Below the pieces are notes generated by a model. The model was given only the letters and a program-made list of their open reading frames with translations. It searched no databases and had not been told where the DNA came from. A stretch of DNA of 31,240 bases from Desulfotomaculum sp. (GTDB lineage: Bacteria > Bacillota > Desulfotomaculia > Desulfotomaculales > Desulfohalotomaculaceae), in assembly GCA_021129815.1 (NCBI GenBank), contig JAJOKN010000115.1, positions 1-31,240 of the forward strand. The letters run 5' to 3'. Position numbers and translations under genes: made by a program. This document shows positions 15,267 through 21,072 of the stretch, piece after piece. How positions within the stretch are numbered: position 1 is the first letter of the stretch; every line of letters begins with the position of its first letter.

Positions 15267-15324
15267 ATGCATTTTGTTACTTAATGTTGAATTAAATAAA
15301 TATACTTGGAAGGAGCGAGCAGCT

Positions 15325-16698
15325 TTGCTTAAAATAACTGACGATGAATTTATCGAAGTGATAGGAACGCGTGCTGAGCGTGCTAAAGCATTAAAGCCCT
15401 GTCCAATAGGCAGTGAAGGAGCGTGCTGTCGTACCTGTTATGTTGGGCCGTGTCGCTTTGTAGGCAAAAATGCTGAAGAGGAAGTACGGGGTGTATGTGC
15501 ATCTACTTTGGGAGTAGTAGCATCGCGTCAATTCTTAACTATGTGTGCCAGTGGCTCTGCTATTCATGCTGCTAGAGCTCGCGAGTCAATTGACAAGCTT
15601 TTAGAAGCAGCTGAAAATGAGCGGAGAATATATGATAAAGCAAAACTAAATGCTGTTGCAGATTTGATCGGAGTTGGTAGTGCCAAAAAAACAAAGACAA
15701 AACTTGCAAAGCAAATTGCAGATGAGTATTTAAGCTGGTTTTACAAATATCCTTCCACAGTTTTAAATCAGCTCCCTTCAAAACGTTTAAATATCTGGAA
15801 AGAATGTGATCTGTTGCCTAGAGGAATCGATAGAGAGATTGCGGAATCTACATACAATGCTAGTGTTGGCGTTAATTACGATGTTGAAGATATCATGATG
15901 CAGGCTGCAAGGGTTTCAATAGCTAATGGCTGGTTTTCAAGCGCTATTGTAGCAGATATAGAAGATATTACGGAAAACTCAACAACTCTATATGATTCAA
16001 AACTTTCGGGAATAGCTGAAAATTATTGGAACAAGATGGTAGGGGGCTATGGAAAAGCTCCATCTTTAAATATATTGGGTGAACTCATTTTTTCTGGGGA
16101 CATCAGAGGAATTGCATGTTTGATAGACTGTGATCATCCGAGATATGAGGAATCGAGCAGTCAGAGATTTATATCATTAGAACTCATAAAGAATGATATA
16201 CTGGTTGTAACTGGAGGCTGTAATAACACTCTGGAAAATGCAGGATTATTATCTCCGGATACTGTAATGCAGGTAGCGGGAAGAAAACTTAAGAAAGTTT
16301 ATGAAAACACTGGAATTCCTCCTGTAATTTCATTAGGTGGCTGTATAAGCCATTCACGTATCCTGAATGTATTATCCGCACTGGTTAAAGAAAATGCAAT
16401 AGATAATGTAGACGACATAAATGGTTTGCCGTGTGTTATTTTGGCACCTCATTGGTTTAGCGGAACAGCTATTTCTATTGGCTGTTTTTATGCTGTTTCT
16501 GGAGTGGAAACGATATTTGGAGGCAAGTCTCTTACGCATGCGAGCAAGGAAGTTACACAAATACTAGAAAGCACATGGAAACAGAAATTTGGGGCGAGTT
16601 TTAGGTTTGTGGATAATGCTATCGATATGGTAGAAGCAGTTTTAGATCATATGGATGCTGTAAGGAAAAATTCTGGACTTGTATCGTATTATCCTTAA
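15325..16698 (+). CDS. CooS (Ni-CODH)-like protein, shortened (about 457 aa), predicted not to oxidise CO
   Basis: PCPIGSEGACCRTCYVGPCR...GVC D/B-cluster motif; GDIRGIACLIDC, ELIKNDILVVTGGC, PPVISLGGC...SRIL C-terminal blocks; TTG 15325 lies 9 nt after AAGGAG (track start 15274). Confidence 0.85.
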   Translation: MLKITDDEFIEVIGTRAERAKALKPCPIGSEGACCRTCYVGPCRFVGKNAEEEVRGVCASTLGVVASRQFLTMCASGSAIHAARARESIDKLLEAAENERRIYDKAKLNAVADLIGVGSAKKTKTKLAKQIADEYLSWFYKYPSTVLNQLPSKRLNIWKECDLLPRGIDREIAESTYNASVGVNYDVEDIMMQAARVSIANGWFSSAIVADIEDITENSTTLYDSKLSGIAENYWNKMVGGYGKAPSLNILGELIFSGDIRGIACLIDCDHPRYEESSSQRFISLELIKNDILVVTGGCNNTLENAGLLSPDTVMQVAGRKLKKVYENTGIPPVISLGGCISHSRILNVLSALVKENAIDNVDDINGLPCVILAPHWFSGTAISIGCFYAVSGVETIFGGKSLTHASKEVTQILESTWKQKFGASFRFVDNAIDMVEAVLDHMDAVRKNSGLVSYYP

Positions 16699-16727: not shown

Positions 16728-18677
16728 GTGACGAGGTTAACCAGTGTCAACGACTTGATAGAATTGAAAAAATCTTTAGTTGGTGAGCGAGTGGATCCAG
16801 ATGGTACAAAGAGACAGTCTTTGTGGGTTTGCTGTGGTACTGCTTGTCGTGCAGGCGGTTCAGTTGAACTAGCTGACAAACTTCAGGAAGAGGCAAAAAA
16901 TAATAACATTCCAGTAGATGTCATTAAAACTGGCTGTTTAGGGATGTGTCAAAAAGGTCCTCTTATTAAGACAATGCCTGATGGTTACTTGTATCAAAAA
17001 GTGAAAACCAAGCACACCGCAAAGATAATAGATTATACAGCTAAGTCGGGTTTTGCTGTTCGCGAGTTGTTTTATCGCATAGATGATCTGGATTATTACT
17101 ATAAAAGGGACATATTCAGCGGACCAAAGGAAAAAATAGAAGACCTGCCTTTTTATCAAAAACAGCTTCGTTTAATCCTTGAAGGAAATGAAAGAGTAGC
17201 ACCGGAAAATATACATTATTACATAGCACAGGGCGGATATGAAGCATTAGCAAAGATTTTATCTGAAAAATGGGAACCTGAAAAAGTGATAGACGAAATA
17301 ACGAAATCTGGCCTTAGAGGACGTGGTGGAGCAGGATTTCCCACAGGGATTAAATGGAAAGCCACCAGGCAGGCGAAAGGAGAAGTAAAGGTAATAGTAG
17401 CAAACGGGGATGAAGGCGACCCGGGAGCGTTCATGGACAGATCCATAATGGAGGGGAATCCTCACTGTTTGTTAGAGGGCATGCTCATTGCGGGGTATGC
17501 AGTAGGAGCAAATTATGGTTTTATATATGTAAGGCATGAGTATCCTTTAGCGCTTAAAAACATAAGTATAGCTATTCAGCAGGTAAAAGAGCTTGGGCTG
17601 ATAGGCAAGAATATTTTGGGTTCGGGTTTTGATTTTGATATTTCTATACGTGAAGGCGCAGGCGCGTTTGTGTGTGGAGAGGAAACTGCGCTTTTGGTTT
17701 CTATTGAAGGGAAAAGAGGATTTCCAAGTCCTAAGCCTCCGTTTCCGGCAGAAAGCGGTGTATGGGCATTTCCAACATGTATCAACAACATAGAAACGCT
17801 CGCTAACGTGCCTTATATAGTAAAGCACGGTGCTGAAAAATTTAGTTCTATTGGAACGGAAAATAGCAAAGGCACCAAGGTTTTTGCATTGGCAGGAAAG
17901 ATCAAGAATACCGGGCTTATAGAAGTGCCTATGGGCATAACGCTTAGAGAGATAATATATGACATTGGCGGAGGAATAAAAGATGGAAAACGCTTAAAAG
18001 CTGTACAGGTAGGCGGTCCATCTGGCGGCTGCATACCTGCAGATTTAATAGACGTAGAGGTGGACTTTGATTCTTTGTCTTCAGTAGGTGCGATAATGGG
18101 ATCAGGCGGCATAATCGTGCTCGATGAGGACGACTGTATGGTGAGCATAGCAAAGTACTTTTTGGAATTTATCAAGGAAGAATCCTGCGGCAAGTGTCCG
18201 CCTTGTAGGATAGGCAGCTATCAAATGCTTGAAATACTCACACGCATAACTGAAGGGAAAGGTGAAATGGAAGATATAGATAGGCTGGAAAACTTAGCTA
18301 AGAGCATGCAGGTGAGCGCTCTATGTGGATTGGGGAAAACTGCTCCAAATCCAGTATTATCCACTATGAGATACTTTAGAGATGAATATGAAGAACACAT
18401 TAAACACAAATACTGCAGGGCTAAGAGCTGTCGCATTAACACTTATAAAATTGATAACGATGAGTGCTTTTTGTGTGGTTTGTGTAAGAAAGTTTGTCCT
18501 GCAGATGCTGTTATAGATGCTGGGGACCAATACATTATAGATCAGGAAAAATGCATAAAGTGCAAAGCTTGTTATGATGCATGTCCGATAGATGTAATTA
18601 AATCTCTAGGCAGCGGTGAAGAGACTATAGATAAAAGTACAATAAATTTAAAAGGGGAACTGCGCGATGGAGCATAA
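16728..18677 (+). CDS. HydB/NuoF (BfuB)-like NADH/FMN-binding Fe-S subunit
   Basis: N-terminal thioredoxin-like [2Fe-2S] (CCGTAC...GCLGMC), RGRGGAGFPTG, NGDEGDPGAFMDR, GGPSGGC, ESCGKCPPCR...LCGLG, C-terminal 2x[4Fe-4S]. Confidence 0.92.
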   Translation: MTRLTSVNDLIELKKSLVGERVDPDGTKRQSLWVCCGTACRAGGSVELADKLQEEAKNNNIPVDVIKTGCLGMCQKGPLIKTMPDGYLYQKVKTKHTAKIIDYTAKSGFAVRELFYRIDDLDYYYKRDIFSGPKEKIEDLPFYQKQLRLILEGNERVAPENIHYYIAQGGYEALAKILSEKWEPEKVIDEITKSGLRGRGGAGFPTGIKWKATRQAKGEVKVIVANGDEGDPGAFMDRSIMEGNPHCLLEGMLIAGYAVGANYGFIYVRHEYPLALKNISIAIQQVKELGLIGKNILGSGFDFDISIREGAGAFVCGEETALLVSIEGKRGFPSPKPPFPAESGVWAFPTCINNIETLANVPYIVKHGAEKFSSIGTENSKGTKVFALAGKIKNTGLIEVPMGITLREIIYDIGGGIKDGKRLKAVQVGGPSGGCIPADLIDVEVDFDSLSSVGAIMGSGGIIVLDEDDCMVSIAKYFLEFIKEESCGKCPPCRIGSYQMLEILTRITEGKGEMEDIDRLENLAKSMQVSALCGLGKTAPNPVLSTMRYFRDEYEEHIKHKYCRAKSCRINTYKIDNDECFLCGLCKKVCPADAVIDAGDQYIIDQEKCIKCKACYDACPIDVIKSLGSGEETIDKSTINLKGELRDGA

Positions 18678-20598
18678 AGTTACGTTAACTATTGATGGAA
18701 AAGAAGTTTGTGTACCAGAAGGAACAAATGTGCTTGAAGCAGCGCGCACAGCAGGCATAGAGATACCGACTTTGTGTTACTTGAAGGATTTTTTAGGCTT
18801 TGGTGCGTGTAGGATTTGCTTGGTTGAAATAGAAGGGTTTCGTGCACCTGTTACTGCCTGTACCACTATAGCTAAAGATGGCATGAAGGTTACAACTAAT
18901 TCCCCTAGACTACAACAGGAGCGCAAGTTTGTGTTGGATTTGATATTTTCAATGCACCCTCCAGAATGCGGCAGGTGTCCAAAGCTCGGAGTGTGTGACT
19001 TGAGAAAGATAGCTAGTAAGAACAAAGTAGCCAAGTCGAGTTTTGGATATACTGAAATCGGTCATACAGTAGATGATCCTAATCCATTTATATATCGAGA
19101 TACCAGATACTGCATATTGTGTGGAAAATGCGTGAGGATATGTCAAGGACAGGGAACTAGCGTGCTTGCATTTTTAGGCCGTGGAGTTAAAATGACGGTT
19201 AGCACTCCTAACAATGCACTTCTTAAAGATAGCGGGTGTACATTTTGTGGCAGCTGTGTGGAAGTGTGTCCGGTAAATGCGCTTTCTGAAAAACCTAAGA
19301 TAGGCAAAGGACGTGAAAGCAAGTATAAAAGATTTGAGTGTGTGTGCTTAGAGTGCGGAAATGCTTGCGACACAATAGTTTCAGTTTATCAAAATGAAGT
19401 TGTAAAAGTAAATGCTAAAGTCAAAGACGATGTACACGGCTATTTGTGCGCGGTGGGACGCTTTGGCTTTACTTTAGATAGAGGAAAGCGCATAACTGCT
19501 CCAATGAAGCGCAAAGGCTTGGATTTTGAAGAAATAACATGGGACGAGGCTATAAGCACTATTGCTGAAAGAATAAAGGGCAGCAGCATGTTGTTATCTG
19601 CAAAGTTGTTAAATGAGGATATAATGACTGCAAAGGCTTTTGCAAAAGCTTTACAATTAGAGGATATTGCCTCAACGGTGGAGCTGTATTCAAGCTATAA
19701 TGCGATGAAGAGCAAGGCAGAAATCGATGATACTGATTTGATAATTGTGGTGGGCTTGAGTTTATCACAAAAGAAACGCTTATTCCCTGCGTTAGACTTT
19801 GATATAAGAAGAAAAGTGAGGTTGGGCTCAAAATTAATAGTGGTAAGTGGCGAAGATTTGGAGGTCAGTGCTGTAGCTGAATTTAAACTTATAGGAGATG
19901 TACGCAAACTTATAAATGAGCTTTTAGGCAAAGAAAGCAGCGAAGACAATAGCATTGCAGGTGCAAAAAAATTATATGAAAGTGCAAAGTCTCCTGTCAT
20001 AATATGCGAACCTTCGTATTATGATGAAATCGTTTGTGCAGCAGGCGAAAGTACAAAGTTAGTTGCAGTGCCATATGAATCAAATGCAAAAGGCGTTGCT
20101 GCTGTTATGAGCGATGTATTAGAAGATGGAAAGATAAAAGCAGTTGTTGAAAGCAGCAAAATGCTTTACGTAGTTGGTGAAGTATGGCCAAATATTGAGT
20201 TTAAATCAGATTTTATTGTGATGCAAAAGCCATACCTTGATGCACAAGCAGATAAAGCTGACTTGCTGCTCCCTGCACCTACAAGCTGGGAGATGGAAGG
20301 CAGCATAATTAATTTATTTGGAAGCTTGACAAAGCTGCAAAAGGCATTGGCTATGCCTGAAGGCGTAAAAACTTACAGTGAAGTGCTTCAAGAGATAGCA
20401 AAAGCTGTAAGTGTGGATATGGATCTTTCAAAGGATATAGAGGCAGCTATTGAAATAAAGGGTAAATATGAAAAGACTGACTTTAAAGGAATACTGCCGC
20501 TGTCAGAGCGAAAACTTCATATGGATGCGTTGAATGAACTGATAGATGATACAGTGGAAAAATTCAATGTTTTAGAAACTAAAAGCGAGGTGAGCTAA
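18667..20598 (+). CDS. HydA-N/NuoG/FdhF-like Fe-S subunit with a degenerate molybdopterin-oxidoreductase domain
   Basis: [2Fe-2S] PTLC...GACRIC...TAC; HxxxCxxCx5C; 2x[4Fe-4S]; CLECGNAC...LCAVGRFG; WDEA block; no H-cluster motifs. Confidence 0.88.
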   Translation: MEHKVTLTIDGKEVCVPEGTNVLEAARTAGIEIPTLCYLKDFLGFGACRICLVEIEGFRAPVTACTTIAKDGMKVTTNSPRLQQERKFVLDLIFSMHPPECGRCPKLGVCDLRKIASKNKVAKSSFGYTEIGHTVDDPNPFIYRDTRYCILCGKCVRICQGQGTSVLAFLGRGVKMTVSTPNNALLKDSGCTFCGSCVEVCPVNALSEKPKIGKGRESKYKRFECVCLECGNACDTIVSVYQNEVVKVNAKVKDDVHGYLCAVGRFGFTLDRGKRITAPMKRKGLDFEEITWDEAISTIAERIKGSSMLLSAKLLNEDIMTAKAFAKALQLEDIASTVELYSSYNAMKSKAEIDDTDLIIVVGLSLSQKKRLFPALDFDIRRKVRLGSKLIVVSGEDLEVSAVAEFKLIGDVRKLINELLGKESSEDNSIAGAKKLYESAKSPVIICEPSYYDEIVCAAGESTKLVAVPYESNAKGVAAVMSDVLEDGKIKAVVESSKMLYVVGEVWPNIEFKSDFIVMQKPYLDAQADKADLLLPAPTSWEMEGSIINLFGSLTKLQKALAMPEGVKTYSEVLQEIAKAVSVDMDLSKDIEAAIEIKGKYEKTDFKGILPLSERKLHMDALNELIDDTVEKFNVLETKSEVS

Positions 20599-20601
20599 AA
20601 A

Positions 20602-21072
20602 GTGGCAGATAAACTTACAGGAATTGATGAAGGAGTGCTCACAGAAGAACAGAAAAAAAGAGCGATGATCATACATTCACTCTTTGAAATACAAAAGGAG
20701 CACAACTATTTGCCTGAAGAAGAGCTGAAAAAACTGTCAGAAAAACTCAACATTCCTCTTGCTGACATATACAGCACAGCATCCTTTTATAAACAGTTCT
20801 ACTTACAGCCTCGTGGCAAAAATGTGGTATGCGTGTGTGTAGGGACTGCATGTCACGTAAATGGTGCGCCAGAAGTGTTGGAAGTGCTTGAAAATACATT
20901 TGGCATAAAAGCAGGTGAAACCGATAAAGACTTAAACGTCACTTTGGAAACTGTGGGCTGTGTGGGCTGCTGCGGCCTTGCGCCAGTTGTCACTTTAAAT
21001 GAAGAAGAAATCATAGGAGAAGTCACTAAGGAAAAAGCTCAAGAGCTAGCAGATAGAGTTTGGAATAAATAG
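20602..21072 (+). CDS. HydC/NuoE (BfuC)-like [2Fe-2S] subunit
   Basis: IQKEHNYLP, ASFYKQF, CVGTACH...GCVGCCGLAP; 156 aa. Confidence 0.92.
   Translation: MADKLTGIDEGVLTEEQKKRAMIIHSLFEIQKEHNYLPEEELKKLSEKLNIPLADIYSTASFYKQFYLQPRGKNVVCVCVGTACHVNGAPEVLEVLENTFGIKAGETDKDLNVTLETVGCVGCCGLAPVVTLNEEEIIGEVTKEKAQELADRVWNK

Follow-up and report, generated by a model that had tools for sequence, protein, structure and literature searches.

The window analysed here, a 31,240-nt stretch of a Desulfotomaculum sp. genome (assembly GCA_021129815.1, contig JAJOKN010000115.1), carries a gene for a shortened homologue of CooS, the catalytic subunit of Ni,Fe-carbon monoxide dehydrogenase (CODH), in which the middle domain is missing and the remainder of the active site has been remodelled. 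This gene (here cooS') is a conserved and selected CODH relative, a repurposed scaffold and not a broken gene. From its sequence, we see an even chance that the product is a two-domain "pseudo-CODH" that would neither carry the [Ni-4Fe-4S] C-cluster nor oxidize CO and would hold another redox centre in its pocket. The original prediction, made from the letters of the window alone, had proposed a selected non-CODH protein, as an electron-relay scaffold or with a simpler Cys/His metal centre, and its selected and its non-CODH nature are both supported. The Bfu and ferredoxin genes around it, its origin from ACS-linked CooS of the Nitrospirota type, and the repeated loss of the domain in other CooS lineages go beyond that prediction. 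Selection is indicated by a low ratio of nonsynonymous to synonymous substitution rates (dN/dS), by deletion boundaries and histidine changes shared among four lineages, and by a conserved ferredoxin partner. Loss of the CODH activity is suggested by the absence of three of the six C-cluster ligands and of the catalytic lysine, and by the failure to find CooC in the genome.

The open reading frame of cooS' is uninterrupted and starts with a TTG codon behind a good Shine-Dalgarno sequence (Table 1), as had been stated from the sequence. A second in-frame TTG lies further upstream, at 15274; it is unlikely to be the start because every homologue begins at M(L/F)KITDD. The Pfam Prismane model PF03063 matched the protein with 208 bits in two separate stretches, and Foldseek aligned it to CODH structures with E = 3e-23, which places it in the prismane/CODH family by both sequence and fold. 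The NCBIfam CooS model TIGR01702 scored 253.6 bits against a cut-off of 478, about half, so the equivalog threshold was missed; the N-terminal part of the protein corresponds to positions 11-252 of the 621 in this model. The hybrid cluster protein (HCP) model TIGR01703 remained at 19 bits, below its cut-off of 360.8.

Alignment with short and full-length relatives separated what was kept from what was lost. The motif C26-x7-C34C35-x2-C38-x4-C43...C58 was invariant in all 40 aligned sequences, so that the D- and B-cluster cysteines are intact, as predicted. After D211-I-E-D-I215 (15955-15969), a linker of ~30-35 residues leads to ...AENYWNKMVGG...GDIRG, and the block with HGHEP, GMCCTANE, and VDVQCIMP is missing. 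We take these to be the motifs of His261, Cys295, and Cys333; CODH-II residue numbers in this text (including the equivalents of Cys446, Cys476, Cys526, Lys563, and His93) are assigned by the family motifs. The structure in PDB entry 6t7j aligned in two blocks (query 24-258 with chain residues 44-284, and query 253-443 with 435-621), which gives an internal loss of ~150-160 aa. With 457 aa, the protein is 179 aa shorter than the 636-aa reference, in agreement with the ~180 aa first estimated, and the predicted loss of the HGH, CC, and QC segment after DIEDI is borne out by both the alignment and the two-block match. Three of the six C-cluster ligands were in the deleted block. The equivalents of Cys446, Cys476, and Cys526 are kept as C269, C299, and C340, whose codons begin at 16129, 16219, and 16342, as the original prediction had it. 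Thr381 takes the place of Lys563 in all family members, and at the His93 equivalent three lineages retain a histidine (H81) and the fourth has Tyr; the acid-base residues Lys563 and His93 are therefore not both present. Because half of the ligands and the catalytic lysine are gone and CooC was not found, a canonical C-cluster is impossible.

The retained half of the site has been altered at fixed positions. At 34 positions, the short family is invariant and departs from the full-length consensus, defined as ≥90% agreement among 36 full-length relatives. Eleven of them fall within ±5 residues of C269, C299, C340, or T381, compared with 3.3 expected (hypergeometric p = 1e-4, with 44 of the 457 positions counted as near the site). 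The near-site changes include G>C265, G>D268, N>H271, V>Y274, T>G297, and G>N300, as well as N>H343, E>H376, E>G380, and K>T381. The reported change of APEWMSEKA to APHWFSGTA was confirmed at P375-A383, with P375-T381 invariant in the family. Histidines also stand beside the kept cysteines as described, in CDH, GCISH, and APH, and H271, H343, and H376 are fixed in the family.

An AlphaFold2 (AF2) model of the protein reached a mean predicted local distance difference test score (pLDDT) of 83.9 and a predicted template modelling (pTM) score of 0.85; in the linker, the pLDDT fell to 71 for blocks 221-230 and 241-250. Template modelling (TM) scores were 0.80-0.82 to CODH crystal structures and 0.86 to the model of a full-length relative, with a root-mean-square deviation of 2.9 Å over 428 residues. 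As modelled, the two retained domains keep the two-domain arrangement of CODH. C269/H271, C299, C340/H343, and H376 each directly follow strands 1-4 of the Rossmann sheet in this model, and this crevice carries the C-cluster in CODH. On the converging Cys/His pocket for which structure prediction had been suggested as a check, all six residues lie at the ends of strands 1-4, and the convergence of their side chains is suggested by this topology and not by distances.

In a large protein collection, the short form made up four clusters, all named "hypothetical protein" by NCBI: the window's own; P0003, 76% identical to the window protein; P0004, 60% identical, from "Desulfotomaculum sp." MAG-1580 (genome G004, locus L022), a metagenome-assembled genome (MAG); and P0005, 50% identical, with 16 members, of which the named ones come from Thermodesulfovibrionales MAGs. 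The homologues at 76, 60, and 50% identity have the same deletion boundaries, both Asn-to-His changes, the Glu-to-His change, and the replacement of Glu-Lys by Gly-Thr, and at identities as low as 50% an intact frame is seen, in four lineages or more. A shared set of boundaries and His substitutions, which had been named as the thing to look for, was therefore found in four lineages, and a deletion private to this genome can be set aside since other genomes carry it. The family labels span two phyla, with MAGs L028, L029, and L030 assigned to Thermodesulfovibrionales (Nitrospirota) and a "Desulfotomaculum sp." MAG to Bacillota; either the ferredoxin-cooS' unit was transferred horizontally or a MAG label is doubtful. 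Locus L022 also encodes an outer-membrane efflux gene.

Scanning 185,579 species genomes with two peptide patterns, a method that could miss divergent members, returned the genome of the window and one other, MAG-1580. Within its order, 60 relatives were compared, and the short form was present only in G004, the other matches being of the full-length, two-block type. A pattern scan of JGI metagenome contigs gave no family member, and in the ESM Atlas, feature-based and shape-based searches alike yielded full-length CODH and ACS (acetyl-CoA synthase) clusters and no short form.

Strong purifying selection on both retained domains of cooS' was evident. Whole-gene dN/dS (Nei-Gojobori) was 0.11-0.13, well below the value of 1 that had been set as the mark of a selected gene. 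By region, it was 0.09-0.11 in the helical N-terminal domain, 0.10 in the Rossmann C-terminal domain, and 0.76-0.79 in the linker; these ratios are approximate because dS is high (1.4 or more). The contrast in constraint between the two domains and the deletion scar is nevertheless clear.

The gene belongs to a cassette that also encodes a ferredoxin and three Bfu subunits (Table 1). A homologous ferredoxin of 67-73 aa is encoded directly upstream of the short CooS in all four lineages; these partner ferredoxins are 49-85% identical, and all eight cluster cysteines are conserved. The complete domain sets of BfuB, BfuA, and BfuC were recognized with Pfam and NCBIfam in the three downstream products, with no match of BfuA to PF01568 in Pfam, that is, no recognized C-terminal Mo-binding domain. 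Genes for BfuB, BfuA, and BfuC (HydABC-like) follow the short CooS in three of the four lineages, including that of the window. The five-gene order fd-cooS'-bfuB-bfuA-bfuC recurs at L001, with the flanks of the window, and at L022/L002, with unrelated flanks. On three Thermodesulfovibrionales MAG contigs, only the ferredoxin and the short CooS were present, with no Bfu genes within 9 kb. The Bfu link therefore belongs to one branch of the family, and the conserved core is the Fd-CooS' pair. That the ferredoxin is kept even where the Bfu genes are missing argues for a self-contained redox unit. In the sister genera, BfuB homologues (51-56% identity) lie on contigs other than those of their CooS genes, and no syntenic full-length CooS-Bfu locus was found there.

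Table 1. Features of cooS' and its cassette (positions in the window; residue numbers refer to the 457-aa product)
Feature	Position	Strand	Description
2x[4Fe-4S] ferredoxin, 67 aa	15063..15266	+	Pfam Fer4_7/Fer4_21; conserved partner gene
Shine-Dalgarno sequence GGAAGGAG	15308..15315	+	9 nt before the TTG start; read from sequence
Two-domain CooS homologue	15325..16698	+	457 aa; N-terminal helical domain and C-terminal Rossmann domain
D- and B-cluster cysteines C26, C34, C35, C38, C43, C58	15400..15498	+	Alignment
Deletion scar and new linker, residues 211-250	15955..16074	+	Former site of the middle Rossmann domain
C269-D-H271 (Cys446 equivalent; Asn>His two residues later)	16129..16137	+	Invariant in 7 family members; full-length consensus C-D-N; directly after model strand 262-267
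C299-N300 (Cys476 equivalent)	16219..16224	+	Invariant; directly after strand 292-297
C340-I-S-H343 (Cys526 equivalent; Asn>His)	16342..16353	+	C340 and H343 invariant in family; full-length consensus C-V-D-N; directly after strand 334-338
P375-H376-W-F-S-G380-T381	16447..16467	+	Glu>His, catalytic Glu-Lys to Gly-Thr; family-invariant; full-length P-E-W-M-S-E-K; directly after strand 370-374
BfuB/HydB-like flavoprotein	16728..18677	+	Thioredoxin-like 2Fe-2S, NuoF FMN/NADH, and 4Fe-4S domains, C-terminal 2x[4Fe-4S]; Pfam, NCBIfam
BfuA/NuoG-like Fe-S subunit	18667..20598	+	Pfam Fer2_4, NADH-G_4Fe-4S_3, Fer4, Molybdopterin
BfuC/NuoE-like 2Fe-2S subunit	20602..21072	+	PF01257, 146 bits

Near-identical sequence was present in runs of five studies from 2015 to 2025, covering aquatic, hydrothermal vent, and unlabelled metagenomes. 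A 7,126-nt contig from one run covers the whole cassette, and the deletion junction is also crossed by contigs of two further runs from other studies; in the contigs from these three independent studies, no indel or joint was reported inside the gene. Patchy contigs on cooS', bfuB, and bfuA came from a library labelled metatranscriptomic, which is no more than a weak hint of expression, as the run is marked as probably DNA. At the cassette's other end, contigs of three independent runs leave the window sequence at the bfuC stop (21065-21072, with loose ends at 21065 and 21069) and run on into different sequence. The genes cdaA, ybbR, and one more come after bfuC in the 76% relative (L001), and in the window a fragment encoding 165 aa of YbbR abuts the bfuC stop. 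Either a deletion specific to the strain or a join made in assembly may account for this window junction.

The genome of the window organism was searched at 1.19 Mb and 92.6% completeness. Besides the short CooS, the only prismane family member detected was an HCP (a 549-aa frame on contig C37), with no full-length CooS. A split gene with its middle domain encoded elsewhere was considered and rejected, as searching the genome turned up no such domain beyond that of the intact HCP gene. ACS and Rnf were likewise not found, and tblastn with two CooS-linked CbiA-family ATPases returned only P-loop matches of 36-40 bits and no CooC. The genome has one 2-oxoacid:ferredoxin oxidoreductase and three to four [FeFe]-hydrogenase-type genes, and no NuoF-type or stand-alone NuoE-type gene was found in it outside the cassette. 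Three of the hydrogenase genes have a clear catalytic domain (G000 contigs C34:5446-6339, C5:7329-8231, and C82:2171-2875).

When 67-68 proteins of the CooS family were placed in trees, the short ones of this family formed one clade (SH-aLRT 100) on a long stem, nested in a clade (support 99-100) that includes full-length Nitrospirota CooS. The nearest full-length CooS genes adjoin ACS and NuoE/F/G-like genes; at one such locus (L020), the NuoF-like protein encoded beside full-length CooS and ACS is 56% identical to the window's BfuB, and the counterpart of BfuA is 40% identical. Wood-Ljungdahl-type CODH has been associated with NuoEFG-like genes (PMC6344411). The simplest history starts from a CODH that exchanged electrons with a NuoEFG/Bfu module; ACS and the catalytic half were then lost, and the wiring stayed.

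If the product is such a pseudo-CODH, it would still dimerize as CODH does, and its Cys3His3 pocket, open where the middle domain once packed, would bind a different redox-active centre, of metal or Fe-S type and simpler in make-up. Electrons would pass between this centre and the small ferredoxin by way of the B' and D clusters and, in the window organism, onward to Bfu, the genome's only NADH/ferredoxin flavoprotein module, where the short CooS could serve as the third redox site of the Bfu complex for a non-CO substrate or partner. A more far-reaching proposal, which we offer tentatively and consider doubtful, is that the pocket holds a previously unseen metal cofactor for non-CO redox catalysis, that Fd-CooS' is a new enzyme and the cassette a new bifurcating Bfu class, and that loss of the middle domain is a recurrent route to repurposing. 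Several observations weigh against the pseudo-CODH reading with another redox centre in its pocket. The gene neighbourhoods yield no candidate substrate, and the Thermodesulfovibrionales branch has Tyr at H81 and Ser at C74, so that the candidate residues are not all universal. A predicted complex of two short CooS chains with the 67-aa ferredoxin scored 0.04, which we read as evidence neither way. The protein could instead be a pure electron relay or scaffold, a dimeric B-D-B wire and assembly hub that would join, for example, two Bfu protomers or ferredoxin sites, with the pocket empty or occupied by a plain [4Fe-4S] entry cluster. This alternative fits the invariance of all B and D ligands, and electrons commonly enter proteins at surface [4Fe-4S] clusters with a His ligand. 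It fits the absence of a recognizable catalytic domain in BfuA, with which the cassette could be a plain NADH:ferredoxin oxidoreductase, and, with no Rnf found, the cell needs an NADH:ferredoxin link. However, the C-terminal domain is as constrained (omega 0.10) as the cluster-bearing N-terminal domain, the fixed substitutions, three of them to His, are concentrated around the pocket, and in Thermodesulfovibrionales the gene stands with the ferredoxin alone, a setting in which it is hard to see what purpose a wire lacking a terminus would serve. We judge a pure relay possible but rather unlikely.

The remaining explanations fare worse. That the protein is still a CO dehydrogenase, its C-cluster completed in trans by another subunit or replaced by a reduced Ni-Fe-S cluster on Cys3His3, would agree with the retention of the Ni-binding Cys526 equivalent and two cubane ligands and with descent from CODH/ACS-type CooS; but the Lys563 equivalent is Thr and the adjoining Glu is Gly in all members, the HCP was the only other source of a middle domain found in the genome, neither CooC nor ACS was found at this completeness, and the TIGR01702 score is about half of the cut-off, which together make it very improbable. 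A decaying relic of CooS or an assembly error is harder still to credit. The name "hypothetical protein" and the lack of a known function would suit it, but the frame is open with the same boundaries in at least four lineages to 50% identity, dN/dS is ~0.1, the partner ferredoxin gene is conserved, and contigs of three independent studies span the junction without indels; the patchy contigs labelled metatranscriptomic, from a run marked as probably DNA, point weakly in the same direction.

Compared with Ni,Fe-CODH (CooS/AcsA), the window protein has homologous N-terminal helical and C-terminal Rossmann domains (~40% identity), the D-cluster (C-x7-C) and B-cluster ligands, the Cys446, Cys476, and Cys526 equivalents, the two-domain geometry, and an upstream ferredoxin gene as in cooF-cooS. 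The nearest type is the ACS- and NuoEFG-linked CooS of Nitrospirota/Thermodesulfovibrionales, and the best solved match is the CODH of Thermococcus sp. AM4 (6t7j). It differs in lacking the middle domain with His261, Cys295, and Cys333, in the replacement of Lys563 by Thr and of three Asn or Glu residues by His, in falling below the TIGR01702 cut-off, and in a genome in which no CooC or ACS was found. Codh-Bfu complexes have been predicted in Bacillota from a CooS-family gene clustered with genes for BfuB, BfuA, and BfuC (Schut et al. 2022, PMC9304861), a combination that the window shares. In those clusters, full CODH gene sets lie between bfuB and bfuA and CO is the proposed third substrate. 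In contrast, the window cassette has a CooS without C-cluster binding and the order fd-cooS'-bfuB-bfuA-bfuC, and one branch of its family has no Bfu genes nearby; with the C-cluster ligands and catalytic Lys missing, it has no functional CODH as a module for the third substrate.

Other short or altered relatives are set apart in different ways. The mini-CooS of Thermosinus carboxydivorans is also a short CooS-like protein (428-482 aa) encoded next to a cooF-type gene (Techtmann et al. 2012, PMC3328121) and has been assigned to clade G (PMC8776680). Its shortness is reported to result from numerous small deletions that spare every ligand of clusters B, C, and D, 11 Cys and the His (PMC3328121), whereas the window protein has one block deletion and has lost three C-cluster ligands; identity of the two was rejected on this published description. 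The repurposed clade B RfCODH (PMC13592312), CooS-V (PDB 7b7q series), and HCPs resemble the window protein in having a prismane fold, an altered active-site cluster, and lost or attenuated CO oxidation, but all retain the three-domain architecture. The two-domain form extends the theme of repurposed CODH scaffolds (PMC13592312). Surveys of Ni-CODH set length limits of 550 or 400 aa, dropping anything shorter, and also left out sequences whose cluster motifs had deletions (PMC6344411, PMC8776680), and because of this filtering the two-domain class is undescribed in the searchable literature. No description of a truncated or C-cluster-less CooS was found in that literature, which is no proof of novelty. 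This conserved class has gone unnoticed so far.

The short family amounts to a natural experiment in which half of the C-cluster site was kept and remodelled with His, the B and D clusters and the ferredoxin still attached. The identity of the pocket content would reveal the extent to which new uses can be made of the CODH/HCP scaffold, and a centre there could add a new third reaction to the uncharacterized Bfu family. For metagenomic surveys, CooS genes without a middle domain should not count as CO-oxidation potential.

The same domain appears to have been lost more than once. An exhaustive profile search returned at least 12 further cluster representatives with a single match across the junction. 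By alignment, these proteins also lack the middle domain; most are without the N-terminal D/B Cys region, and the His triad is absent from all of them. A tree from 393 shared columns requires 10 changes of the short/full label, and an approximately unbiased (AU) test rejected the union of all 17 short proteins in a single clade (delta lnL 252, p = 1.6e-5), the group tested having been defined after a first tree had been seen. From these trees, the middle domain was apparently lost independently in the at least 12 other CooS-like clusters. Such proteins, among them P0138, P0128, P0130, and P0150, are like the window protein in lacking the same domain at about the same boundaries and unlike it in their separate origins and contexts, in the missing His triad, and, for most, in the missing N-terminal D/B cysteines. 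P0138 (L025:2294-3553; GCA_028707015.1, a Dehalococcoidales MAG), a 419-aa CooS-like protein, is encoded with cdhD on one side and the ACS gene on the other. Neither the middle domain nor the N-terminal Fe-S Cys region is present in it, and it may be a CODH remnant retained as a partner of ACS. Dehalococcoidia are described as lacking CODH. In the neighbourhoods of other short forms, P0128 is an orphan and P0130 lies near a CbiA-type ATPase. JGI automatic annotation labels several of the middle-domain-less proteins (P0128, P0150) "hydroxylamine reductase (hybrid-cluster protein)", probably a misannotation since alignment and tree place them with CooS.

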